44,060 nt of DNA. It comes from a virus. The notes under the pieces are model-generated. The model did no database searches. It had not been told where the DNA came from and was given only the letters and a program-made list of their open reading frames with translations. Location of the stretch: the IMG/VR virus record IMGVR_UViG_3300045988_092570; one strand, written 5' to 3'. Below are positions 6,013-34,222 of this stretch, piece by piece. Both the position numbers and the translations under genes were made by a program. How positions within the stretch are numbered: position 1 is the first letter of the stretch; every line of letters begins with the position of its first letter.

Positions 6013-8001
6013 ATGGAAGAAAAAGCAAAGACAAGCACGATCAGCGAGGAGCTGCGCGAGTGGCAGGCGAGGCTGGGTGAGAGCGACGCCAAGTGGTCGA
6101 AAGAAGTCGAAAAAATGAACGAGCGCGAGGCGGTCTACAACGGGGACCGCACGATGCAGCCGCTCGTCCCCGGCGACACGCACCGCGACGGCACGCTGAA
6201 AAAGACGAGCCACGTGCGCAACATCACGTTTGAGAACATCGAAAGCCAGGTATCGAGCAGCATTCCGCAGCCGAAGGTGACGCCGCGGCGCAAGAAGGAC
6301 GAGCACCTGGCCGACGTGATCGAGCACTTTCTGCGCAACGAGCTCGACCGGCTCCCGTTTGAGGCACTGAACGATCTGGCCGAGCGGACGGTGCCCATTC
6401 AGGGCGGCGTGGGCTTTTTGGTCGAGTGGGACAACACGAAGCGCACGAGCACGACCGTCGGCGAGGTGAACGTGACGCTCATCCACCCGCAGCAGTTCGC
6501 GCCGCAGCCGAACGTCTACACGGGCATTGCCGACATGGATTACTTCATCGTCAAGGTGCCGACGACGAAGGGCTACGTCGAGCGCCGCTACGGTGTGCTG
6601 CTTGAAAACGAGGGTGAGAGCGAGCCGGATGTCCGCGGCGGCGACGGCTCCACGAGCGACCGAAACCTGACGCTTTACATCGGCTACAAGCTCAACGAGC
6701 GCGGCGGCATCGACCGCTACACGTGGGTGAACGACACAGAGCTCGAAAACCTCAAGGACTATCAGGCACGCAGGCAGCCGGTGTGCAAGAGCTGCGGCAA
6801 GGTAAAGCCGCTGCCGGGGCAGGAGGTAAACGGCGCGGCCTACTCGGGCGGTGCGTGCCCGTGGTGTGGCGGCAGGGACTGGGAGAGCAAGACGCAGGAC
6901 TTCGAAGAGCTCTATGCGCCGGTACAGCGCAGCGACGGCACGTTTGTCGGCGGGATGCAGGAGACGGCGGGCGAAAACGGCCTGCCGGTACAGGCGCCGG
7001 TGCGCATCCCGTATTACCGGCCGGACCGCTACCCGATCATCTTGCAGCGCAGCGTGAGCGTCTTCGGCCAGCTGCTCGGAAACAGCGACGTTGACATGAT
7101 CCGCGACCAGCAGAACACGAGCAACCGCATTGAGCAGAAGATCATCGACCGACTGATGAAGGCAGGCACGCGCATCACGCTCCCCGACCGGGCGGACCTG
7201 CGCACCGATCCCGAGGACGGCGAGCGCTGGTACATCGGAAAGCCGAGCGACAAAAGCCTCATCGACGTCTACGATTTTTCGGGCAATTTGCAGTACGAGC
7301 TCACGTATCTCGCGCAGGTGTACGAAGAGGCGCGGCAGATCATCGGCATCACGGACAGCTTTCAGGGCAGGCAGGACACGACCGCAACGAGCGGCAAGGC
7401 CAAAGAGTTTTCCGCTGCGCAGGCGGCGGGACGTCTCGAGAGCAAGCGCGTGATGAAAAACGCCGCCTACGCCGAGCTCTTCGAAACGATGTTCAAGTTC
7501 TGGCTGGCGTACTCGGACGAGCCGCGGCCGGTGACGTATAAGGACAGCACGGGCGAGACGATGTACGAGGAGTTCAACCGCTATGACTTCCTCGAAGAAG
7601 GCGAAGACGGCGAGCTGCACTGGAACGATCAGTTCCTCTTCTCGTGCGACACGAGCGCGCCGCTGGCGAGCAACCGCGAGGCGATGTGGCAGGAGACGCG
7701 GCAGAACCTTGAGGGCAGGGCCTTCGGCGACCCGACGGACCTTGAAACGCTCATTCTGTTTTGGGCGAAGATGGAGGAGCTGCACTACCCCGGCGCGGCG
7801 CAGACGAAAAAGCACCTCGAAGAAAAGGCGCAGCGGCAGGAAGAAATGGCCGCGCAGCAGGCGGCCATGCAGGGCGATATGCCGGGCGGCGGCGCGGCGG
7901 TGCCGGATGAGCTGGCCGCGGCGATCGACGCGCAGGCACAGCAGGACGCCATGAACGCCGCGAGCGGCGGGCAAGTGGAAGAACTTTACATTCCGCAGTA
8001 A
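6013..8001 (+). CDS. Portal protein with an inserted CxxC...CxxC zinc-ribbon
   Basis: About 660-aa ORF directly after terL, with an acidic/Q-rich C-terminal tail. ATG 6013 has GAGAGGGAGAAAAG upstream; ATG 5995 is an alternative. Confidence 0.75.
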   Translation: MEEKAKTSTISEELREWQARLGESDAKWSKEVEKMNEREAVYNGDRTMQPLVPGDTHRDGTLKKTSHVRNITFENIESQVSSSIPQPKVTPRRKKDEHLADVIEHFLRNELDRLPFEALNDLAERTVPIQGGVGFLVEWDNTKRTSTTVGEVNVTLIHPQQFAPQPNVYTGIADMDYFIVKVPTTKGYVERRYGVLLENEGESEPDVRGGDGSTSDRNLTLYIGYKLNERGGIDRYTWVNDTELENLKDYQARRQPVCKSCGKVKPLPGQEVNGAAYSGGACPWCGGRDWESKTQDFEELYAPVQRSDGTFVGGMQETAGENGLPVQAPVRIPYYRPDRYPIILQRSVSVFGQLLGNSDVDMIRDQQNTSNRIEQKIIDRLMKAGTRITLPDRADLRTDPEDGERWYIGKPSDKSLIDVYDFSGNLQYELTYLAQVYEEARQIIGITDSFQGRQDTTATSGKAKEFSAAQAAGRLESKRVMKNAAYAELFETMFKFWLAYSDEPRPVTYKDSTGETMYEEFNRYDFLEEGEDGELHWNDQFLFSCDTSAPLASNREAMWQETRQNLEGRAFGDPTDLETLILFWAKMEELHYPGAAQTKKHLEEKAQRQEEMAAQQAAMQGDMPGGGAAVPDELAAAIDAQAQQDAMNAASGGQVEELYIPQ

Positions 8002-21255: not shown

Positions 21256-21465
21256 ATGAATGAAAAGATCAAGCAGGAAGCGGCGCACGCGATGCGCCTG
21301 ATCGGCATTTTGAACGTTAACGGCGACGCCGTCGATGTGGTGGCGGCGGTGCGCCAGTCGCTTCGCAATATCGTGACGATCTGCGATGCGGCAGAAGAGC
21401 CGACGCAGGGCGACACGCAGGACAAGCAGGCGGCGGAGCCGGAAAAGGCCGGTGAAGCCAAATGA
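21256..21465 (+). CDS. Hypothetical protein (69 aa)
   Basis: Internal ATG with GGAGGTAAAGAGC upstream. Coupled to the next gene. Confidence 0.55.
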   Translation: MNEKIKQEAAHAMRLIGILNVNGDAVDVVAAVRQSLRNIVTICDAAEEPTQGDTQDKQAAEPEKAGEAK

Positions 21466-23114
21466 AGCTGCCTGAGGTCCCGTATGCCGACGGCATCGGC
21501 AAGCGCGGGCAGCTGCAATTCTACGGCCTTGACCACAATCTGGGCGCCGGAGACGGCGGGCTGTGGGACATGCAAAACCTGACGAGCGACTACTATCCTG
21601 TGCTTTCGACGCGCGCAAAGCGCAAAATTTACAAGAATCTTGTCAGTCCGGGCGGGCTTTTCGCGTGGGACGCGCTGGCATGGGTGGAGGGCACGGCCTT
21701 CTACTACGACGGCGTGAAAAAAGGCAACGTGACGGCGGGCGAGAAGCGCTTCGCCGCCATCGGGGCCTATATCATCATCCTGCCGGACAAGAAGTACTAC
21801 AACACGGTATCGGGCGAGTTCGGTAGCCTTGAGAGCACGTGGAGCGGCGCCAGCTTAACGTTTACGAACGGCAAGCTCTATGAAGAGGCCGCGGAGGCGA
21901 ACACCATTCAGGCAAGCGGCATCGCATGGAGCGACTACTTCAAGGCGGGCGACGCGGTGACGATCTCTGGCTGCACGAAGCACACGGAGAACAACAAAAC
22001 GCCAGCGATCCGCGAGATCGACGGCGACAAGATGTATTTCTATGAAAACGTCTTCAAGCTGGACGGTGACAACGGCACGACAGAGTACACGGAGACGGGA
22101 AACTTGACGGTTCGGCGCACGGTGCCGGACTTAGAATACCTGTGTGAGAACGAAAACCGGCTGTGGGGCTGCGACGGCCGGACGATCTACGCAAGCAAGC
22201 TCGGCGATCCCTTCAACTGGAACGTGTTCGAGGGCCTTGAGACCGACAGCTACGCCGTGGACACGGGCAGCGCGGGCGACTTTACGGGGTGCGTGAGTTT
22301 CCTCGGCTATCCGGTGTTCTTTAAGGAGGACCACATCTACAAGGTGTACGGCAGCATTCCGTCCAACTTTGAGGTGATGGGCTCGGCCACGCTGGGCGTT
22401 GCCAAGGGCTGCGGCGGGAGCCTCGCCATCGCGGGCGAGCGGCTGCTGTACCTCTCCAATTCCGGCGTGATGATCTACTCGGGCGGCATCCCGCAGAGCC
22501 TGCACGACGCCTTTGGCATGACGAGGCTGCGGAACGGACGCGCGGGGAGCGATGGTCTCAAGTACTACCTGAGCGCGCAGGACGAGAATGGGGAGTGGAA
22601 GCTCTACGTCTACGACACGCGCAAGGGCATGTGGCACATCGAGGACAAGACGCACGCGACGCACTTCTGCCGCTATCAGGGGAACAACTATTTCCTGACG
22701 GCGGAGGGCAAGATCGCGCTGACGGGCAACATCCTCGACGCGCCGGAGGGCTGCACGGACGAGGAAGACTTCACGTGGTTCGCCGAGACGGGCGACTTCA
22801 CGGGAAAGGGATCGAGCCAAAGTACGAGCTACGACGGCGTGAAGAAGAGCATCGCCAAGCTGTGGGTGCGCATCGAGGTCGCGGCGGGGGCCGAAGCAAA
22901 GGTGCTGATGCAGTTCGATTCCGACGGGAAGTGGGTGCAGGCCGGGCAAACGCTGAAACCGGAGCGAAAGCGCAGCTATTACCTGCCCATCGTGCCGCGG
23001 CGCGCAGACCATTACCGCATCCGCATCGAGGGCAAGGGCGAGTGCCGCGTCTATTCGATGAACCGCGAGTATTACGCGGGCAGCGAGCTCAAGAGCACGC
23101 GCGGACCACAGTAA
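21462..23114 (+). CDS. Virion structural protein (putative tail or adaptor component)
   Basis: 550-aa ORF with native codon usage in the structural block. No specific motif recognised. Confidence 0.65.
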   Translation: MKLPEVPYADGIGKRGQLQFYGLDHNLGAGDGGLWDMQNLTSDYYPVLSTRAKRKIYKNLVSPGGLFAWDALAWVEGTAFYYDGVKKGNVTAGEKRFAAIGAYIIILPDKKYYNTVSGEFGSLESTWSGASLTFTNGKLYEEAAEANTIQASGIAWSDYFKAGDAVTISGCTKHTENNKTPAIREIDGDKMYFYENVFKLDGDNGTTEYTETGNLTVRRTVPDLEYLCENENRLWGCDGRTIYASKLGDPFNWNVFEGLETDSYAVDTGSAGDFTGCVSFLGYPVFFKEDHIYKVYGSIPSNFEVMGSATLGVAKGCGGSLAIAGERLLYLSNSGVMIYSGGIPQSLHDAFGMTRLRNGRAGSDGLKYYLSAQDENGEWKLYVYDTRKGMWHIEDKTHATHFCRYQGNNYFLTAEGKIALTGNILDAPEGCTDEEDFTWFAETGDFTGKGSSQSTSYDGVKKSIAKLWVRIEVAAGAEAKVLMQFDSDGKWVQAGQTLKPERKRSYYLPIVPRRADHYRIRIEGKGECRVYSMNREYYAGSELKSTRGPQ

Positions 23115-24576: not shown

Positions 24577-27500
24577 ATGGGACGACTTGTTAAGACAACG
24601 CCTGCGGCACAGGAGCAGCAGGAAGAAAAGCGCACGGTGGTCGGCACCGGCGCGCACGGTCGGCTTGTAAAAACAGGGGATGTGCAGCGCACATCCCCTG
24701 CGGCGAATACGGCGAAGACGCCGACAGCGCAGAGCGTTTATCAAAAAGCACTGGACGAAGCGATGATGAAACGCGCGGCGGCGGATCAGAAAAACAAAGA
24801 GCGCGGCCGCAAGAGCTACAATCGCACACACGCGCAGGAGGTGCGCGAGATCACCGGTGACAAGACAAAAAAGAGCATTACGCCGATCATCAAGAGCGCG
24901 GCGGCGGGCTATGCGGCGGATATGGTCGGCGCGGCGGACACGCTGCTGCGTGCGCCGAGTGGCCTGAACTACGCAGCGAGCCAGGAACGCGGAGAGATCG
25001 AAGCCTCAAAAAAGAACATCGCCGCCTATACCGAAAAGCTCAAGGCGGCGAAGACCGAGGAGGAGCGCCAGCAGTGGCAGACACTTATCGACCGCAACAA
25101 GCGCCTCATCGAGATCAACAGCAAGACCGCGGGCGAGCGGGTGAAAAACTATCAGGACGCGACGAAGGGTGCACAGGAGACGTTGCAAGGCACCTATCAG
25201 AAGTTGCGCAAGACCGCATCCGACAACATGGAAAAGGCGAACGAAGGGCTCACGCCGGTCGGCAAGTACCTCAATAACGTCGGCGTGGCAGGCGCGCAGA
25301 TGGTCGCCGACGCGGCGCTCGGCGGCGGCAGCGCGCTCGGCCCGATGTTCCTGCGCGTATTCGGCGGAAACTCGCAGGAGGCGGCGGAGGCGGCGGACAA
25401 GCCCGGTATGAGCGCGGCGGAACAGCTGGACGCACAGAACCGGGCGCTGCTGTACGGCACGGCGAGCGGCGCGGTGAGTATTGCGACGGAAAAGATCAGC
25501 AACGTCGCAGCGCCGTTCAAGAAAGCGTTCGGCGGCGGTTTCCTCGACAAGGCAATCGACGGTGCAATCGCCAAGATGAACGGGAACGCGGCGGGACGGC
25601 TCGCCCTGTCGTTCCTATCCGAGGGCGGCGAGGAAGTTATTGAGGACATCGTGCAGCCAGCCTTGCAGACGATCTACACCAAGAAGCGGCACGAAAACCT
25701 CGGAGAATACCTCAGCGAGCTTGACGCGGCGGAGATCCTGAACGACTTCCTCGTCGGCGGTGCGCTCGGCCTGCTGGGCAGCGGCGTAGAAGGCGTTCAG
25801 AAAATGGACGCACGCCTCGCAGCCGAGCGAGCTGCGGCGGAGACGCAGGAACCGACGGCATCGGTGGAGACGACGACACCGGAAGCAACTGCGCCGGCGG
25901 CGCAGCGGCAGGCCGAGCCGACAGTCGAGCAGCGGCCGGTGCAGCGGCAGAACACCGAACCGGTACCCACGCCAACCGTCGGGCAGCAGAACACCATGCC
26001 CGCGCAGCCTGCGCCGACGCCTGAGAGCGCGCAGGACATGGGCGAGGGTAATTTGACGCCCACACAGCTGAACGCCGCACAGGGCGCAGCAGAGGGCAAA
26101 GCGGACGCCCTGGACGCGGGCAAGCGCGTTAATCTTCTTGAGTACAGCAACGAGCAGAACGCGCAGAAGGTTGAAGACGGACTGAAAGACGGCACGCTGG
26201 CCGTGGACGCGAAAGAGAATATCTATCGCGTAGACGAGGACCAGCACATCGACCGGCGCGACAGCGCGAGCGTGGGCGAGCGAAACGTGAACGCCTTCCA
26301 GTTCGATCACCCCGAGCTGCACAGCTATTACGCGGACGCGGCGGCGGTCTTGCAGGAAGAAATGAGCTTCTCCCAGAAGGGCGGCGAGCTCATCCGCCGG
26401 ACGAGCCGCGAGGCGGGCGATGACGAATACATCCGCGCCAAGCGCGGCGTGAGCGAGCGCATCGCACGGCTGCTGGATGACGAGGGCGTACGCTACGATG
26501 ACATCGACCGCTCGCTGAGTGCGATCATCCACAACCACGGGCAGGAAAACTTCGCGGCGGCGAAGCGCGTAGAGCTGCTGCTGGACGACATGCTGACAAA
26601 CGGCTATACGGATATCCACGGGCAGCACATTGCACCGAACGAAGAATACATTGCAGCAAAGAAAGCCATCCCCGGCGCAGACATGAGCGAGCGGACGCAC
26701 GAAGAACTCCCGATCTATGATATGCCGGAGGGGCGGAACGGAGGAATTGACAATGCAGGACAAGAAGCACGGAACGATGCCGCGGGGGCTGAGCTTGCCG
26801 ACGCTGCCGAAAGAGGCGCATCAGGCGAGGACAACGCAGCGCGTGCACTATCTGATGGAGCTGCCGAACGGGGAGAGCGCCGGGGTAACGGAAGAGAATC
26901 TGAGCGCATTCCTCGAGAAGTACGGAACGTCGGCGGAGAAGACGGAAACGCGCTGACGGTACAACAGCGGCTTGCGGCATCCGGTATCTCACAATTCATC
27001 AGCCCGCGGGAGGCCAACGTGCCGAACGGCGCAAGCGGCGATAACACCGTCACCATCTTCGACGAGGCGGACTGGGACCAGGAGCTTATCGGCGCGGCGG
27101 ACTGGGCAAAGTCCAAGGGCGTGAAAAAGGTGACGGCGCTGCTGGGCGTCATCAAGGTTGAAAAGGACGGGAAAACCGGCAGAATTTTCGGCGCGTTCAA
27201 CGCCGACACGGGCGAAATTTTCGTCAATGCCGGTTCAGTGCAGCGCAGCGTGAGCGAGACGATCGAGCATGAAACAGCACATTATCTGGCCGAAGTGGCG
27301 AGGCGCGAGAACGTCAGGACGTTTATGCGCGACGTTCAGAGCCGGTACAGCAGCGAAGAGTGGGGCAAGGTGTACGATGCCTACTTTGACCGCTATGCAG
27401 CGCTGACGGGCGACTACGCGGGAATGAGCGAGAGCGATATCGAGCTCTATGTGTGGGAAGAGATCATGGGCGATGCCTATGCCGAGATCGACCAGTATGA

Positions 27501-30500
27501 CGAAAAGGCGAGCCGATTCAGCCGAGAGGCCGAAAGCGCGCTGTCGCAGAGCGGAGAGGAAGGCGAAAACGCCCTACAGGTCGAGAGCTCACAGAACGCG
27601 GCGGAACAGGGCCGCGAGACTGCGGCGGCGACGGAACGCAGGACAGGGCCGCCGGAGAAGTTCAGCGTGCTCGAAGAGGTCGAAGGGGAAAACGGTACAT
27701 ACGGCAAGGGCGTCATGCTCGACACGAATCTCTTTGACGGAATCCGCCCGAGAGACTGGGGCAAGACGCTCGGCCGATACGTCTATAACAATATGGCAGG
27801 AATGGAGCTGACGGCATACGATGCAGCCGGAAAGCCAGAAACGATCTATCTTGCCCGCACAAACGACCGCGTGCAGAAAGACGGCGCGAAAAACAGCCAC
27901 AAGGTCATCGACAAGCTGGCGAGAAGCACGGGCGACAATATCCGCAGCCTTGCGGTCGTCCACCTTGACGAAGCGCTCACGACGTCCAGATATGAAAATT
28001 CCACCGATGAACACAATCATCAGTGGATGGATGAAAACGGATGGGAACACAGAAAGACATATCTGCAAGACCGATCCGGCAATATTTACGAGGCAACGCT
28101 GAACATTGCGGATGGACGGGATCGCAAGATCCTGTACGACATCAACAACATTCGGCTGGTGGACAAAGCAAAAAGCCCCGACAAGCACACTGCTGCCGAG
28201 GCAAAAGCCGGAGAAATTACCGGCGGCGCCGTGCCCTCAGCCGTTACCGGAGGGGCTCGCTCAACATCACGTAATTTCTCCGAAAAGAGAATAGCAGACC
28301 GCGGCGGAAATGTCAAGTCACCGACGCCGGGCGATGAGACCCGGCAGCAGATCATGGGCGAAGAAAACAAGGACACGGCGCCACTCCGCAATGTCGGCAT
28401 TGAAACTGCCGAGCCGGTGGCACGCGCCGATGACCTTGCGAACGCAAGCGTATCACAGAACAAAGGAGATGTCAAGCCGACAGGTCGATTTTCGGTAAGC
28501 GGCAGCGCGGCGGAACAGCTGAACCGGGGCCGCAGGGACATCGCCGACGCAGAGCTTGCGGACGCGGAGATTGCCGGGCAGGAGTGGTCCTATGAAAAGG
28601 CGGAGCAGGACGGCAAGCGTGGGGACTACGCGTCGATCCCTGCGGAGTGGAAAACGAAGCTCGAGCGCGCACGGACGGCGGCAACGAACAACATCAAGCC
28701 ATCCGGCTTCGACAGCTACGATGCCTATCTCGATGCGCTGGACAAGCAGCGCGCGGCAGATCGGGCTGAGCGGCTGCGCGTCAAGAGCCGGGACGAATTC
28801 AAGGGCACAAAAGCGCTCGACGAGTTGGGCGTGAAGATTGCGAACAGCGCAGGCATTTACCACAATGCAGAACAGCTTATCGCCAATGACAAGGCGGCAA
28901 AGAGCATCCAGAACGCAACGAAGCGCGCCGAGCAGCGCTTGGGCGCGACGCGGCGGGAAAAGACCATCGCACGAGACATCGCAAACGGTGAGCGCTCGAT
29001 GTCCGATATCCCTCGCAGCGTGAAAAAGTCGCGCGTGCTTGAGCTCGTGGACTATTACACGGCACAAAAGGCGACGAAGACGGGGCTTTTGCAGCAGCAG
29101 CGCATCGAGATCAATGACGCGCTGCGCGAGCAGGCGCGCGAGCTCATCGGAACAGAAGCGCCGGAGATCAACCGAAAGGGTCTGAACAAGCTCTTCGACC
29201 CGAGTAAAGGCATTGTGCTTTACCATCGCACGCCGCAGCGCATTATGCGCGCGCTCTTTGGCTGGAAGCAGGGCCAGCAGATCAACGAGGCTGTCTTTGA
29301 GCCAGTCTACGAGAACGAGCAGGAGCGCAAGCGCTTTATCAACCGCATGTTTGACGAGGTTCGAACCTTTGAAGGCGCGGACGGCAAGAAAAGCGCACTG
29401 AACAAGGACGAGAGCGCCTTTGCGCAAAGGCTGAAAGAGGGACGAACCGTCGAGGAGCTGGTTGAAAAGTCCGGCGCGGCGGAAAGCATCAGAGCGGCGG
29501 CGGAAAACCTGAAAAATGGCGCAGAGATGAAAGACGCCGCGCGGGAATTCAGTCTCGACAAAGGCTCGCGCGATCTGGCTCGGCAGTATGCCGACTGGCT
29601 GCAAACGCAGGATGACTACGCGGCGGCAAAGAACGTCGACCGCGTGAAGGTTGAGAACGCGATCGAGAAATACACCGAACTCTATGACAAGCTCTACGCC
29701 GCGATCAACGACTTCCTTGTAGCGCACGGGTACGAGCCCATCGGCTTTATCAAAGGCTACGCGCCGCACTTCCAGACGAGCGAGGCAAACGGAAAGCTCG
29801 AGAGCGCACTCAAGGCGATCGGCGTCGACCTCGGCTCCGGCGTGGGCAAACTGCCGACGAGCATCGCAGGTCTGACGAAATCCTTCAAGCCGAACAAGCG
29901 GTACAATCCGTTCTTCCAGCACCGCAGAGGCAATGAGACGGACTACGATATCGTCAAGGGCTTCGAGACATACGTGGATTATGCGAGCGACGTGCTCTAC
30001 CACACGGACGACATCATGCGCGTGCGTCAGATGGCAAACTACCTGAGATCGACATTTGCACCGGAAGAAATGAAGGTGGACATCGACCAAATGGAGGCCA
30101 TGCGCTACGCTCCGGCGGATGTGAAGGAAGAATACTTGCGCGATAAAAAGAAGATCACGGGTGATACCTTCCTGAGCTATGAGGATCTGACAAACCTGAT
30201 GGAACAGTATACAGACGAGAAGTACCGCAGCATCGAGGACGCGACCGAATTCAGCGACCTTGTTTCGTGGATGGATGACTACGCGAACAAGCTCGCGGGC
30301 AAGCAACTCTTCGAGGACCGCGCAATGGAGCGCGAAGTCGGGCGCGAAGCGCTGAACGGCGCGAAGAAGCTCAACCGCATGTTCGCCCGCGCGAATGTGG
30401 CAGGGAACCTCTCGTCGGCGCTGAACCAGACGGCGCAGCTGCCGATGATCGCAACCGAACTCGGACAGAAGTACACATGGCGCGCCGTGGGCGATATCCT

Positions 30501-32070
30501 GAACGGGAAGACGACCGGCATGAGCGCGTTTCGCGGGGAGAGCGACTTCCTGACGGAGAAGAGCGGCATTGACTATATCCAGAGCACCAAGGGTGAAAAA
30601 GCGATAGAAAAGCTATTCAGCCCGCTGGAAAAGGTCGATACTCTCGTCAGCACAATCGCTGTGCGCGGCAAATACCGCATGGAGTTAGACGCCGGCAAGA
30701 ACCCGAAAGAGGCGATGAAAGCGGCGGACCGCTGGGCGCGTGATATCATGGGCACGCGCTCGAAAGGCTCGGCGCCGCTGACGTTCCAGTCGAAAAACCT
30801 TATCGCACAAATGCTGAACATGTTCCAGGTCGAGGCAGCGAACACCATCGAGCACATCACGCAGGACCGGCTCGGCCCCGGCTTCAAGGAAATGGCCGCG
30901 AAAATCGGCAAGGATAAGGCCATTAAAAAGCTCGCAAGCGACGCCATTGCCTATATGCTGCTCGCATTCCTGCTCAACCGGTTGGACGAGGATGCCTACG
31001 GCGGAACGCCTGCGCCATTTGACGTCATCGGCATGGGGCTGAACGCCGCCGCGTCCGGCAACGGATTGACTTCGAGCGACATGCTCAAGATGATCACCGA
31101 CGATGTGACCGAAAACATCTTCGGCGAGCGCCTTTTCGACACCGATCCAAACGACATGAACGACGAGTTTGACGGCTGGTCGGCGGCGGAAGATACGCTA
31201 TACAACATCAGCAACGATGTACCGTATGTGCGCAACGTGGCGGGCCTGATGGGATGGGGCGACCAGACGTTGCCGATGCCCGACATCGTTGGCGCAGCAG
31301 GGAAGACGAAAGACGCACTCAAGAACGCAGATAGTGCGGGCGAATTTTGGGCAGAGGTCGCGAAGCAGCTCGTGGGCCTCGCGGGCGACACGCTTCCGGG
31401 CGGCCGCCAAGCCGAAAAGATGCTGCAAGGCGGCGATGCTGTGATTCGCGGCGGGTCGTATCAGGGCTTTGGCGACAGCAAGAGGCTGCAATATCCGGTG
31501 GAGCCGCTGCTGGAAGATCCGTTCGAGGCGCTGCGCGCTGGGCTCTTCGGAAAGAATTCGCTGAACGAATCGCGTGCATATTGGGCAGCGGGCGGAAATG
31601 CGCTGAGTGTATCGCAGACGACGCTCTACCAGGAGCTCGTCGACATGGGCGCGGACCGCGAGGTCATCTACGACGCGATCCAGAAGTGGCGCAAGATCGA
31701 CAAGGACGACAGCCTGACCGACGGCGAGCGTGAGGCAGCGCAGTTCGAGCTCGTCCGCAAGCTCAAGCTGACGAACGAGCAGAAAGAGCGGCTGCACGAT
31801 GACCTGTCCCGCTCGTCGAGAAGCTATGCGGCAGCGCAGGAGGCGCAGAAGCAGGGCATCAGCGCCGAGACCTATGCCGAGTACAAGGACGCGACGGCCG
31901 ATCTGACCGCCGATAAGGATGAGAACGGTAAGACCATCAACGGCAGTAAAAAGGCCAAGGTGATGGACGCGATCAACAAAATGCAGCTGAACAAGAAGCA
32001 AAAGGACTGGCTGTATCTCGACGCGGGGTACAGCGAGAAGGACATCGGAAAGGCACCGTGGAATAGCTGA
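24577..32070 (+). CDS. Giant 2497-aa multidomain (polyvalent-type) virion or ejection protein as sequenced; possibly a frameshift fusion of two genes
   Basis: Uninterrupted ORF. Gly-zipper/TM-like N-terminal region, an HExxH zincin motif (HETAH, 27268-27282), and a long alpha-helical tape-measure-like C-terminal part. Codon bias collapses in 26752-26955. Confidence 0.7.
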   Translation: MGRLVKTTPAAQEQQEEKRTVVGTGAHGRLVKTGDVQRTSPAANTAKTPTAQSVYQKALDEAMMKRAAADQKNKERGRKSYNRTHAQEVREITGDKTKKSITPIIKSAAAGYAADMVGAADTLLRAPSGLNYAASQERGEIEASKKNIAAYTEKLKAAKTEEERQQWQTLIDRNKRLIEINSKTAGERVKNYQDATKGAQETLQGTYQKLRKTASDNMEKANEGLTPVGKYLNNVGVAGAQMVADAALGGGSALGPMFLRVFGGNSQEAAEAADKPGMSAAEQLDAQNRALLYGTASGAVSIATEKISNVAAPFKKAFGGGFLDKAIDGAIAKMNGNAAGRLALSFLSEGGEEVIEDIVQPALQTIYTKKRHENLGEYLSELDAAEILNDFLVGGALGLLGSGVEGVQKMDARLAAERAAAETQEPTASVETTTPEATAPAAQRQAEPTVEQRPVQRQNTEPVPTPTVGQQNTMPAQPAPTPESAQDMGEGNLTPTQLNAAQGAAEGKADALDAGKRVNLLEYSNEQNAQKVEDGLKDGTLAVDAKENIYRVDEDQHIDRRDSASVGERNVNAFQFDHPELHSYYADAAAVLQEEMSFSQKGGELIRRTSREAGDDEYIRAKRGVSERIARLLDDEGVRYDDIDRSLSAIIHNHGQENFAAAKRVELLLDDMLTNGYTDIHGQHIAPNEEYIAAKKAIPGADMSERTHEELPIYDMPEGRNGGIDNAGQEARNDAAGAELADAAERGASGEDNAARALSDGAAERGERRGNGRESERIPREVRNVGGEDGNALTVQQRLAASGISQFISPREANVPNGASGDNTVTIFDEADWDQELIGAADWAKSKGVKKVTALLGVIKVEKDGKTGRIFGAFNADTGEIFVNAGSVQRSVSETIEHETAHYLAEVARRENVRTFMRDVQSRYSSEEWGKVYDAYFDRYAALTGDYAGMSESDIELYVWEEIMGDAYAEIDQYDEKASRFSREAESALSQSGEEGENALQVESSQNAAEQGRETAAATERRTGPPEKFSVLEEVEGENGTYGKGVMLDTNLFDGIRPRDWGKTLGRYVYNNMAGMELTAYDAAGKPETIYLARTNDRVQKDGAKNSHKVIDKLARSTGDNIRSLAVVHLDEALTTSRYENSTDEHNHQWMDENGWEHRKTYLQDRSGNIYEATLNIADGRDRKILYDINNIRLVDKAKSPDKHTAAEAKAGEITGGAVPSAVTGGARSTSRNFSEKRIADRGGNVKSPTPGDETRQQIMGEENKDTAPLRNVGIETAEPVARADDLANASVSQNKGDVKPTGRFSVSGSAAEQLNRGRRDIADAELADAEIAGQEWSYEKAEQDGKRGDYASIPAEWKTKLERARTAATNNIKPSGFDSYDAYLDALDKQRAADRAERLRVKSRDEFKGTKALDELGVKIANSAGIYHNAEQLIANDKAAKSIQNATKRAEQRLGATRREKTIARDIANGERSMSDIPRSVKKSRVLELVDYYTAQKATKTGLLQQQRIEINDALREQARELIGTEAPEINRKGLNKLFDPSKGIVLYHRTPQRIMRALFGWKQGQQINEAVFEPVYENEQERKRFINRMFDEVRTFEGADGKKSALNKDESAFAQRLKEGRTVEELVEKSGAAESIRAAAENLKNGAEMKDAAREFSLDKGSRDLARQYADWLQTQDDYAAAKNVDRVKVENAIEKYTELYDKLYAAINDFLVAHGYEPIGFIKGYAPHFQTSEANGKLESALKAIGVDLGSGVGKLPTSIAGLTKSFKPNKRYNPFFQHRRGNETDYDIVKGFETYVDYASDVLYHTDDIMRVRQMANYLRSTFAPEEMKVDIDQMEAMRYAPADVKEEYLRDKKKITGDTFLSYEDLTNLMEQYTDEKYRSIEDATEFSDLVSWMDDYANKLAGKQLFEDRAMEREVGREALNGAKKLNRMFARANVAGNLSSALNQTAQLPMIATELGQKYTWRAVGDILNGKTTGMSAFRGESDFLTEKSGIDYIQSTKGEKAIEKLFSPLEKVDTLVSTIAVRGKYRMELDAGKNPKEAMKAADRWARDIMGTRSKGSAPLTFQSKNLIAQMLNMFQVEAANTIEHITQDRLGPGFKEMAAKIGKDKAIKKLASDAIAYMLLAFLLNRLDEDAYGGTPAPFDVIGMGLNAAASGNGLTSSDMLKMITDDVTENIFGERLFDTDPNDMNDEFDGWSAAEDTLYNISNDVPYVRNVAGLMGWGDQTLPMPDIVGAAGKTKDALKNADSAGEFWAEVAKQLVGLAGDTLPGGRQAEKMLQGGDAVIRGGSYQGFGDSKRLQYPVEPLLEDPFEALRAGLFGKNSLNESRAYWAAGGNALSVSQTTLYQELVDMGADREVIYDAIQKWRKIDKDDSLTDGEREAAQFELVRKLKLTNEQKERLHDDLSRSSRSYAAAQEAQKQGISAETYAEYKDATADLTADKDENGKTINGSKKAKVMDAINKMQLNKKQKDWLYLDAGYSEKDIGKAPWNS
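26753..26956 (+). CDS. Embedded out-of-frame 67-aa ORF with native codon usage
   Basis: GGAGGA lies 7 nt upstream of ATG 26753. Hand-counted third-position GC is 56/67 here, against 31/68 for the giant ORF frame over the same bases. Confidence 0.5.
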   Translation: MQDKKHGTMPRGLSLPTLPKEAHQARTTQRVHYLMELPNGESAGVTEENLSAFLEKYGTSAEKTETR

Positions 32071-32725: not shown

Positions 32726-34222
32726 CTAAAGGACGAGGCGGTAGTGGATGGTGAGGGTGTTGGCGGCTTTGTTCCAGGTGATATTGTCGGCGACGCTGCG
32801 GACGGCGGCGTTCTTTTCGGCAACGGTGGTGTCGGGGGATTCCAGCGTTTTGACGACGGCACGGAGAGCGGAGCGCAGCAGCTTCGGATCGACGGCGGCC
32901 TGGTCCTCTTTCTGCATGGCGGCGATCTGCGCGTCGAGATCGGCGATGCGCTTCTGCACGGCGGCCTTGCTGGCCTTGTACTCTTCGACCGTATCGGCGC
33001 CGGTGAGATAGGCGTCGCGCAGGCGGTCGAGCATGCGAACGGCGGAATCGCGCGCGGCCTCGACGGCGGATAGGGAAGATGCGGAGCCGTCGCTGGAACG
33101 GACCACATCGAAGGTCAGAGACGAACCGCGGGCGGCGTCCTCCTGCAGGCGGGAGATCAGTGCAGCCTCCAGCGCGTCGCGGCGCACCGTCTGCCGGACG
33201 CGGCAGGAGCCGCGCACGTAATTGTTGCAAGCCATATAATCCGGCGTATTCACGATGAGGCCACCGCCGCAGGCGGCACAGCGGACAAGGCCGGAGATCC
33301 AATGCTTCTGCGTTCCGGACGCGCGGGCATAGCGCGGGTACAAAAGCTTCTGCTCGTCGATGCGGTGCTGAACGGCATTGAAAGTCTCTTCGTCGATCAG
33401 CGGCTCGTGCTTGCCGTCGACGAGGACGACATTCTCGTTCGAAAAGTCGCGGCGGGTGCGGCCGGCCGGATTCCAGCGCAGTTTGCCGATATAGACGGGG
33501 TTGCGCAGGATATATTCGATGGTCCGGTTTTCGAATCTGCCGCCGCGGTGCGTGCGCTGGCCGCATTCGTTCATCCAGCGCGCGAGCGGAAAGCAGCCTT
33601 CGCCAGCGAGGTAGCGACGGAACAGCTCTTTCACAAAGCCATCCTCGGGCGGCTTCGGCACGAAAACGTGATCCTTGATGCCGTAGCCATACGGCGGATT
33701 GCTCTGCACCTCGCCGCGGCGGTGCTTTTCCTCCATGCCGCGCTTGACCTCCTGGGCAAGGTTGATGCTGTAGTATTCGTCCATCGCCTCGATGAGCGCT
33801 TCGGTAATGAGGCCCATGCCGCCCTCGGCCACGGGCTCGGAAATGGAGATGACATCAATGCCGAGCTGCTTGCGCAGGATAGACTTGTACATGACCGCAT
33901 CATCGCGGTTGCGGGCAAAGCGCGAAAACTTCCAGAGCAGAATCGCGTCGAAGGGCTTCGGCTTCGTCTTGGCGACGCCGATCATGCGGCGGAATTCGTC
34001 GCGCTTTTTCACGCCGCGGCCGGAAATGCCCTCGTCCATGAAGACGAATTCATCCGGCACGATATAGCCGTTGCGCGCGGCCCATTTGCGGACCTCGACG
34101 AGCTGCGAGGCGGGGGAGAGCTCCACCTGGTCATCGGTGGAGACGCGGATATAGGCCGCGGCGATGCGAAGATCAGGCAGCGGCGCGGGGACGGAAGAAG
34201 TAAAGCCTTTCGGCGGGGTCAT
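32726..34222 (-). CDS. int: Large serine recombinase (integrase)
   Basis: N-terminal resolvase catalytic motif AAYIRVSTDDQ, a recombinase domain, and a Cys-rich zinc-ribbon (CAACGGGLIV...CNNYVRGSC) followed by a coiled-coil. AAAGGAG upstream. Confidence 0.9.
   Translation of the reverse strand: MTPPKGFTSSVPAPLPDLRIAAAYIRVSTDDQVELSPASQLVEVRKWAARNGYIVPDEFVFMDEGISGRGVKKRDEFRRMIGVAKTKPKPFDAILLWKFSRFARNRDDAVMYKSILRKQLGIDVISISEPVAEGGMGLITEALIEAMDEYYSINLAQEVKRGMEEKHRRGEVQSNPPYGYGIKDHVFVPKPPEDGFVKELFRRYLAGEGCFPLARWMNECGQRTHRGGRFENRTIEYILRNPVYIGKLRWNPAGRTRRDFSNENVVLVDGKHEPLIDEETFNAVQHRIDEQKLLYPRYARASGTQKHWISGLVRCAACGGGLIVNTPDYMACNNYVRGSCRVRQTVRRDALEAALISRLQEDAARGSSLTFDVVRSSDGSASSLSAVEAARDSAVRMLDRLRDAYLTGADTVEEYKASKAAVQKRIADLDAQIAAMQKEDQAAVDPKLLRSALRAVVKTLESPDTTVAEKNAAVRSVADNITWNKAANTLTIHYRLVL

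Follow-up and report, generated by a model that had tools for sequence, protein, structure and literature searches.

The 44,060-nucleotide (nt) stretch of viral DNA analyzed here, IMG/VR record IMGVR_UViG_3300045988_092570 (referred to below as the window), contains a single giant open reading frame (ORF) that encodes a 2497-amino-acid (aa) protein of the polyvalent type. Within this protein, a low-complexity linker joins an N-terminal module to a module that carries an HExxH motif, and the DNA that specifies the linker also contains a second ORF of 67 codons, which lies on the same strand in the +1 frame and is preceded by its own Shine-Dalgarno (SD) sequence. A preliminary description of the window had noted this small ORF and had preferred the view that a 1-nt change in a run of four G residues fused three formerly separate genes into one; its alternative was that the small ORF is a genuinely overprinted gene. 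From comparison with related loci, we conclude that the region is very probably dual-coding, that is, that it specifies both the linker of the giant ORF (the main frame) and an independent 67-codon gene in the +1 frame, and that this is a real gene within a gene and not a sequencing error. The overprinting alternative is thus the one that our results strongly support, through the conservation of the +1 ORF, its SD-preceded starts and the codon phase of substitutions.

Positions 26752-26955 form the most extreme compositional stretch of the 7.5-kb giant ORF. Third positions of main-frame codons are G or C in 31 of the 68 codons of this interval; the corresponding counts in the other 68-codon segments of the giant ORF have a mean of 52.1, a standard deviation of 4.7 and a minimum of 39. 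The difference between the G+C counts at first and third codon positions (GC1 minus GC3) is +25 over the same interval, as compared to a maximum of +5 elsewhere in the giant ORF. For the linker as a whole, the G+C fractions at main-frame positions 1, 2 and 3 (GC1/2/3) are 0.82/0.58/0.44, and 89% of its residues are G, A, E, R, D, N, S or Q, as in the segments NGGIDNAGQEAR and GEDGNALTVQQR. When the DNA is read in the frame of the small ORF, G or C is found at 56 of 67 third positions, and GC1/2/3 is ~0.6/0.43/0.82, matching the norm of this genome (0.62/0.42/0.75); the predicted product includes VHYLMELPNGESAGVTEENLSAFLEK. The two third-position counts had been given in the preliminary description, and our recomputation returned exactly the same values. 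The giant gene was also scanned for other alternative-frame ORFs with the native codon signature, and none was found besides the small ORF.

The GGAGGA reported to lie 7 nt ahead of the ATG at 26753 is indeed present in the sequence. Inside the giant ORF, the pattern GGAGG-N4-9-ATG occurs only once, and this single occurrence is the start of the small ORF. Local RNA structure at the start is weaker than in shuffled sequences (z = +1.8), in keeping with a site that is accessible for initiation. Over the whole window, the same pattern has 26 matches, all on the + strand, where 9.4 would be expected by chance over both strands. Because several of the matches coincide with the starts of long + strand ORFs (e.g., 569, 13526, 24577, 40358, 42776 and 43289), the pattern looks useful as a marker of real starts in this genome.

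Loci carrying the small domain were collected by way of either the junction segment or the small protein; alignment A2 of the small proteins was too diverse to seed this locus search, and a long-form subset, A3, was used. At 116 of the 117 loci, an ORF of 300 aa or more contains the domain in its +1 frame. The sole exception is L081, where the domain is read in-frame as a normal part of a 525-aa protein and no second frame overlaps it. The homologous +1 ORFs are 37-114 aa in length and are located in the linker, just upstream of the HExxH module. All 116 embedded copies have an SD-preceded start, which consists of a perfect GGAGG and an ATG in 107 of them; in an earlier set of loci, the spacing from GGAGG to ATG was 8 nt in 31 loci and 5 nt in 19 loci. 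At the 5' end of the linker, the only conserved feature of the main frame is the Gly-Gly that the SD sequence encodes. In several lineages, a stop in the +1 frame is found 1 to 6 codons upstream of the small-ORF ATG, and the ORF, its ATG and its SD sequence persist across lineages in which the small proteins share only ~20-30% identity. These proteins include the type found in the window (...GLSLP...VHYLMELPNGESAGVTEENLSAFLEKYG), a second type (...GLSLP...IYTVETEDGDLLSLGPEELANYA) and a long form (...YLMETDDGELVRVPESKLEAWEAA...PLNKAEQRLKDRIMQEIYGS).

In a converse survey, which started from the HExxH module of LPD23 type, a hidden Markov model (HMM) matched an embedded small +1 ORF at 70 of 79 loci. 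Of the nine loci without an HMM match, five were inspected, and in each of them the embedded ORF encodes a homologue that has diverged further, MDRVLITGKKAGLLMSVPADKL...RRIYGK, and shows the same codon signature; the remaining four are near-duplicates of these five in layout. One profile search with the small protein returned 229 cluster representatives, and another returned 69 gene-called small proteins, nearly all of them on short or truncated contigs. Gene callers had recognized the small protein solely where the big ORF was truncated at a contig end or interrupted by a mutation. Together, the surveys show that the putative embedded gene accompanies every LPD23-type module sampled, and that the arrangement is an ancient one within this family of phages and prophages of uncultured Oscillospiraceae/Clostridiales.

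The pattern of substitutions differs between the overlap and the DNA around it. Among 16 close relatives (clade 1), the flanks have 56/58/166 polymorphic sites at main-frame codon positions 1/2/3, and the overlap has 17/14/12 (Fisher p = 4e-4). Nine pairs of loci that are independent of one another in the phylogeny showed 67/59/119 differences at positions 1/2/3 of the small ORF (position 3 versus 2, p = 8e-6), and the next 450 nt, which are single-coding, gave 123/108/344 in main-frame phase for the same pairs. For pairs at 70-93% protein identity, the ratio of nonsynonymous to synonymous polymorphism (pN/pS) was 0.25-0.47 for the small ORF, as compared to 0.74-2.1 for the linker frame, and in each of the seven within-type pairs compared, conservation was higher for the small protein than for the linker peptide. 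Amino acid identity between distant clades failed to separate the two frames (0.31 versus 0.30), because the low complexity of the linker raises identity artificially; the frames can be told apart by alignment scores and by the phase of substitutions. Synonymous resampling of the small ORF, with its protein held fixed, left the linker frame free of stops with a probability of 0.01-0.43 per lineage, for a product of 3e-8 over eight lineages. These comparisons show that selection maintains both frames, with the small-ORF frame carrying the amino acid constraint and the linker frame being constrained only to stay open.

Several observations weigh against this interpretation. Given the linker, the +1 frame would be open by chance with a probability of 0.19-0.94 per lineage, as T is seldom found at the second codon position of a hydrophilic linker, and an open +1 frame is therefore weak evidence when taken alone. 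In clade 1, the second half of the overlap sits in a block of generally low diversity, so that a recent sweep or recombination may account for part of the within-clade conservation. For the small protein, there was no match in Pfam, in PHROG, among PDB sequences or by Foldseek: a PDB sequence-profile search gave chance-level matches only, and comparison of its structure model with PDB and BFVD by Foldseek gave nothing significant. Natural variants with a stop or a frameshift upstream of the small ORF exist (L047, L050 and L056/L057, described below), and the intact fusion is therefore not always kept. Finally, a functional link between the small gene and the LPD23 module is drawn from their adjacency, which could be explained by inheritance alone.

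For the small protein, AlphaFold2, using 62 sequences, predicted a compact fold with strands at residues 32-36 and 42-46 and a helix at residues 47-57, and the predicted local distance difference test (pLDDT) scores of this core were ~77-84. Residues Y33, E36 and G40 are invariant in alignment A1, and E36 and G40 are invariant across all 62 sequences of A2. The GLSLP motif, which is present in 43 of 68 distinct family members, lies in a region of the model that has lower pLDDT than the core and no secondary structure. The form (Q/E)GLSLP loosely resembles peptides that bind the bacterial sliding clamp, such as QLSLPL or QL[SD]LF.

The profile search that returned the 229 cluster representatives also found the same domain in-frame at the C- or N-terminus of unrelated proteins of 200-590 aa (E values of 1e-8 to 1e-13). 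These matches argue that the +1 product is a real protein domain and that its frame is probably the older one, and the domain appears from such sequence matches to be an uncharacterized mobile domain absent from Pfam. The in-frame carriers (P0193, P0196, P0203, P0209, P0213, P0225, P0233 and P0283) are mostly without assigned function; zinc-ribbon proteins and membrane proteins carry it C-terminally, elsewhere it follows an Mrr_cat restriction-endonuclease domain, and some carriers have tandem copies of the short and long forms. Some loci have an Mrr_cat gene as a neighbor, which was tested for the small domain; neither those loci nor the window contained a second copy. Two further proteins, P0190 (6660 aa) and P0205 (1124 aa), matched the hairpin portion of the profile 21 and 10 times, respectively. 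P0205 looks repeat-rich in a eukaryotic style, and the repeated matches of both proteins are therefore probably spurious.

The HExxH motif of the module next to the linker was found in 17 of 18 diverse lineages, and in alignment A4 both of its His residues are invariant and its Glu nearly so. Five of the 18 module members matched Pfam LPD23 (best E = 1e-19); the copy in the window itself was not matched. An AlphaFold2 model of the module, built from a shallow alignment of six sequences, had a predicted template modeling score of 0.73 and placed HExxH on a predicted helix at residues 105-120. The top Foldseek matches of this model were zinc metallopeptidases, at non-significant E values of at least 0.05, and a PDB sequence-profile search with the module gave nothing.

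The giant ORF and its relatives are highly mosaic. Homologues that are ~90% identical over the shared half carry cassettes for a PBECR5 nuclease (E = 3e-54) or ART-PolyVal (E = 4e-24), and more distant homologues carry LPD23, LPD3, MuF_C or ddrB-ParB. The PBECR5, ART-PolyVal, LPD3, MuF_C and ddrB-ParB domains are hallmarks of polyvalent proteins (PMC5512222); such associated domains in the homologues, together with a virion-protein gene nearby, are what characterizes the giant protein as polyvalent. Large internal cassettes and swaps of the N-module among the relatives (e.g., P0017 and P0018) amount to a cassette-like mosaicism. At L016, L030, L032 and L039, N-modules have been swapped at a junction just upstream of the SD sequence of the small ORF, and the SD sequence and start were retained where the N-module was replaced by an unrelated one. 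The loci L023, L025, L029 and L031 (small ORF at 6674-6895) are recombinant: the N-terminal 20 residues of their small protein are identical to those of the window type and are followed by a long-form core. Loci of this kind have a different LPD23 subtype, and the breakpoint is inside the embedded gene, between GLSLP and the hairpin. With junctions located upstream of the SD sequence and between GLSLP and the hairpin, the core therefore always travels with the LPD23 module.

Table 1. Features of the giant ORF, the embedded small gene and their surroundings in the window
Feature	Coordinates	Strand	Remarks
Giant ORF, 2497 aa, polyvalent-protein type	24577..32070	+	host (main) frame
Linker of giant ORF, main frame, aa 721-793, NGGIDNAGQEARNDAAGAELADAAERGASGEDNAARALSDGAAERGERRGNGRESERIPREVRNVGGEDGNAL	26737..26955	+	low-complexity
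Embedded small gene, 67 aa, MQDKKHGTMPRGLSLPTLPKEAHQARTTQRVHYLMELPNGESAGVTEENLSAFLEKYGTSAEKTETR	26753..26956	+	+1 frame relative to giant ORF; TGA stop at 26954-26956
Shine-Dalgarno GGAGGA of small ORF	26740..26745	+	7 nt before ATG 26753; also encodes conserved main-frame Gly-Gly
GLSLP motif, in N-terminal region predicted to be unstructured	26786..26800	+	nearly invariant in alignments A1 and A2
Conserved core, predicted beta-hairpin then helix, HYLMELPNGESAGVTEENLSAFLEKY	26846..26923	+	from AlphaFold2 and alignments
HExxH module, LPD23 type	27049..27552	+	directly after linker; aa 825-992; HETAH at 27268-27282; presumed zincin-like
G4 run, proposed slippage/fusion site	26730..26733	+	no role supported
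Third-frame TGA	26748-26750		
In-frame GTG, proposed third-gene start, GGGAGG 5 nt upstream	27019..27021	+	not conserved as start
phrog_511 internal virion protein gene	21462-23114		upstream of giant ORF
Serine integrase	32726-34222	minus	

Alignment with homologous phages had been suggested in the preliminary description as a way to distinguish two genes from three at this position. Forty-six viral-contig loci with the junction segment were retrieved, and all loci that cover this segment read through it in the same frame, from 98% down to ~38% identity and in independent assemblies, so that homologues keep one continuous frame here. Linker lengths among the loci differ by multiples of three, and the linker sequence is poorly conserved between clades yet always open. 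The sequence elements that had led to the proposal of a fusion, that is, the GGGG run at 26730-26733, the third-frame TGA at 26748-26750 and the GGGAGG-N5-GTG at 27019, are all present in the window as described. However, the run varies among homologues, being GGGG at 33 loci, GGGA at two and GAGG at two, and is never G5; it is absent from loci with other N-modules. The TGA is not conserved, and the codon equivalent to the GTG, which had been put forward as the start of a third gene, is GTC, GTT or ATC in other lineages. No start codon recurred at a conserved main-frame position downstream of the small ORF in the lineages compared. Given the variation of the run, the continuous frame and the unconserved TGA and GTG, a 1-nt fusion, an assembly error and a slippage site are therefore unsupported.

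Contigs on which three genes had been called proved to have a big ORF that was cut by the contig end or truncated by an upstream lesion, and on each of them the main frame runs without a stop through the small ORF. As for the ancestral three-gene layout, a once-independent small gene over which the big ORF later extended its reading is plausible in view of the in-frame occurrences of the domain elsewhere; an extant locus with three unfused genes was sought and not found, the apparent ones being truncations of the big ORF.

The upstream lesions were located as follows. In L047 (4270-4282), AAA is replaced by TAA, and in L050, CGA is replaced by TGA, ~100-115 nt upstream of the small-ORF start at 1321. 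The site corresponds to ~26640-26660 of the window, and the two nonsense codons are in the main frame, ~32 and 38 codons before the small-ORF ATG. These near-identical contigs came from different samples and have an intact small ORF and downstream part; they may be natural split variants or decaying prophages. In L056 (7670-7690) and L057, which are independent assemblies, a 1-nt insertion of T (GGT-T-AAT-TTG) ends the N-terminal part after 447 aa. This split corresponds to ~25990-26010 of the window, in another low-complexity stretch, and the remainder, with the embedded small ORF, is open. A different kind of product, the 118-aa P0151 on a 1.3-kb Logan contig, is read in the main frame through the end of the N-module and the start of the linker and then in the small-ORF frame (…AEGTG followed by SVPMPWQRKTIYTVETEDG…), so that the contig would have to contain a 1-nt indel, whether through an error or as a rare fusion that occurs naturally.

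Among the other explanations that we weighed, the one that survives best, although it is unlikely, is that the N-terminal, small and C-terminal proteins are separate products of an unrecognized termination-reinitiation or processing event, so that the linker would not be part of one polypeptide. The TAA of L047, the TGA of L050 and the extra T of L056/L057 suggest that the C-terminal part is sometimes expressed separately, and polyvalent proteins have been proposed to be processed by their own peptidases (PMC5512222). However, there is no main-frame stop across the small ORF in any lineage, for which the resampling gave a chance of ~3e-8, and a restart codon conserved downstream of the small ORF is lacking. 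Post-translational cleavage in the linker would be compatible with dual coding and is not a rival to it.

Programmed +1 ribosomal frameshifting, in which ribosomes would slip into the small-ORF frame and make a fusion of the N-module to the small domain beside the full-length protein, is in our view very unlikely. Two frames do overlap on one mRNA, the +1 frame of the window is open for 22 codons upstream of the ATG, and P0151 is a fusion of the main to the alternative frame. On the other hand, P0151 is a single short contig that fits an indel or an error, and no slippery site is conserved among the homologues, in which the G run varies. Several lineages also have a stop in the +1 frame shortly before the ATG, and the SD sequence and start are kept even where the N-module has been replaced by an unrelated one.

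A compositional artefact would require that a linker rich in G, A, E and R automatically yields G-rich first positions and a stop-free +1 frame. The composition of the linker and the chance openness of the +1 frame, given above, agree with this idea, but it does not explain why third-position G+C is depressed in the main frame, why each of the 116 embedded copies has a start preceded by an SD sequence, why substitutions switch codon phase with a +1 pN/pS below 0.5, or why the +1 product is homologous to in-frame domains of other proteins, and we regard it as highly improbable. Similarly improbable is a fossil gene, which would have been real before the fusion and would now be dead, its codon bias and ORF being decaying relics. 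The small-ORF frame does look older, with native codon usage and a domain known outside the overlap. However, the pN/pS values of 0.25-0.47 indicate purifying selection in recent divergences, ORF, ATG and SD have outlasted the divergence of the small protein to ~20-30% identity, and among ~195 loci there is none in which the start was lost or stops were gained while the linker persisted. The least credible explanation is the one first preferred, in which a 1-nt change in the G4 run, by assembly error or recent mutation, joined genes of ~724, 67 and ~1683 aa: one extra G would end the upstream part at the TGA at 26748, 2 nt before the ATG, with a GGGAGG-preceded GTG downstream, and gene callers give a three-gene layout on some contigs, but the same continuous frame runs through many independent assemblies and clades, and the three-gene calls arise where the big ORF is truncated, either by the end of the contig or by a nonsense mutation or frameshift farther upstream.

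The remainder of the window fits a temperate-phage-like element of ~44 kb with a G+C content of 59%. Its genes include tail-fibre-like genes in addition to the internal virion protein gene and the serine integrase listed in Table 1. The giant protein has 2337 homologues in the database, of which P0001 is identical to it, and its relatives come from IMG/VR viral contigs and from metagenome-assembled genomes of Oscillospiraceae/Clostridiales. The giant protein of the window had no Pfam match above threshold, and Pfam and PHROG scans gave no usable match. DNA and protein searches of the INPHARED phages and PLSDB plasmids gave no match, and there is thus no annotated relative in either collection.

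Our explanation of the dual-coding region is as follows. The giant ORF would encode a phage protein of the polyvalent type, which is probably packaged in the virion, and over 26737-26955 its frame would supply a presumably disordered linker that joins the N-terminal module to the HExxH (LPD23-type) module. Ribosomes would initiate the small gene at its own GGAGGA-N7-ATG (26740-26755) and terminate at the TGA ending at 26956, giving a small protein that contains GLSLP and has a core made of a beta-hairpin and a helix. Initiation is probably independent and not achieved by frameshifting, because several lineages have +1 stops shortly before the ATG. The small-ORF frame would be the older of the two, and the big ORF would have come to read across it out of frame, thereby creating the linker. 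The small protein may function together with the neighboring HExxH module, for example by regulating, inhibiting or chaperoning a peptidase that carries out processing, and embedding may keep the small gene and the LPD23 module linked while other modules shuffle. All of this combined, namely an older gene that was buried by out-of-frame reading, whose product is dedicated to the LPD23 peptidase as its inhibitor, chaperone or activator, and whose embedding acts as a linkage device, is a possible account that we offer tentatively and consider rather doubtful as a whole.

Literature searches found no description of the embedded gene, which is apparently undescribed. The giant ORF resembles the polyvalent proteins of Iyer et al. 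2017 (PMC5512222) in being a giant multidomain ORF near virion genes with cassette-like swapping of modules; the text of that paper never uses the words "overlap", "frameshift" or "linker", and so it describes no embedded gene. The small gene would add an unannotated, conserved component to the polyvalent-protein systems of phages of gut Clostridia, and its tie to the LPD23 HExxH module suggests a regulatory partner for a putative processing peptidase. The locus may also serve as a model for how multidomain fusions form across an intervening gene and for how overlap could enforce genetic linkage in highly mosaic genes. Embedded genes on the same strand are well documented in tiny viruses and only sporadic in double-stranded DNA phages, and annotation pipelines discard them. 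The comparative support is unusually strong in the present case, consisting of ~195 loci, a switch in codon phase and an independent family of in-frame domains.

Other phage loci combine two reading frames in one transcript. The G/GT-type tail assembly chaperones are made by programmed frameshifting in phage, and they resemble the present locus in having two reading frames within one transcript of the structural region. Unlike the G/GT chaperones, the small gene has an independent SD sequence and ATG, lacks a conserved slippery site and has +1 stops near its ATG. The spanin gene Rz1 of lambda, like similar embedded phage genes, is contained entirely within a larger gene (here Rz) of the same strand but is read in the +1 frame; it has a ribosome-binding site of its own, and both products are translated from one mRNA. 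The embedded gene described here is likewise small, on the same strand as its host and in the +1 frame, with its own SD sequence, and it has no sequence or functional relation to spanins. In contrast to Rz/Rz1, its host gene encodes a 2497-aa polyvalent protein, the overlap is confined to a low-complexity linker between domains, and it is the embedded gene that is apparently older and structured, whereas the host frame is the unconstrained reading.

The overprinted genes of small viruses, such as A/B and D/E of phiX174 and those of RNA viruses, offer a further comparison (for reviews on viral overprinting, see PMC8227390 and PMC3494269). There, as here, one nucleotide stretch serves two proteins, one frame is compositionally odd and disordered, and the phase of substitutions marks the constrained frame. 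Unlike those viruses, the window derives from a double-stranded DNA temperate phage of ~44 kb, for which genome compression is not an obvious driver. In classical overprinting, the newcomer is the short embedded ORF, whereas here the disordered, newer-looking frame is that of the long host ORF. The usual polarity of overprinting would thus be reversed, because the protein that is structured and apparently older is embedded, and its off-frame serves the host ORF as a disordered linker.

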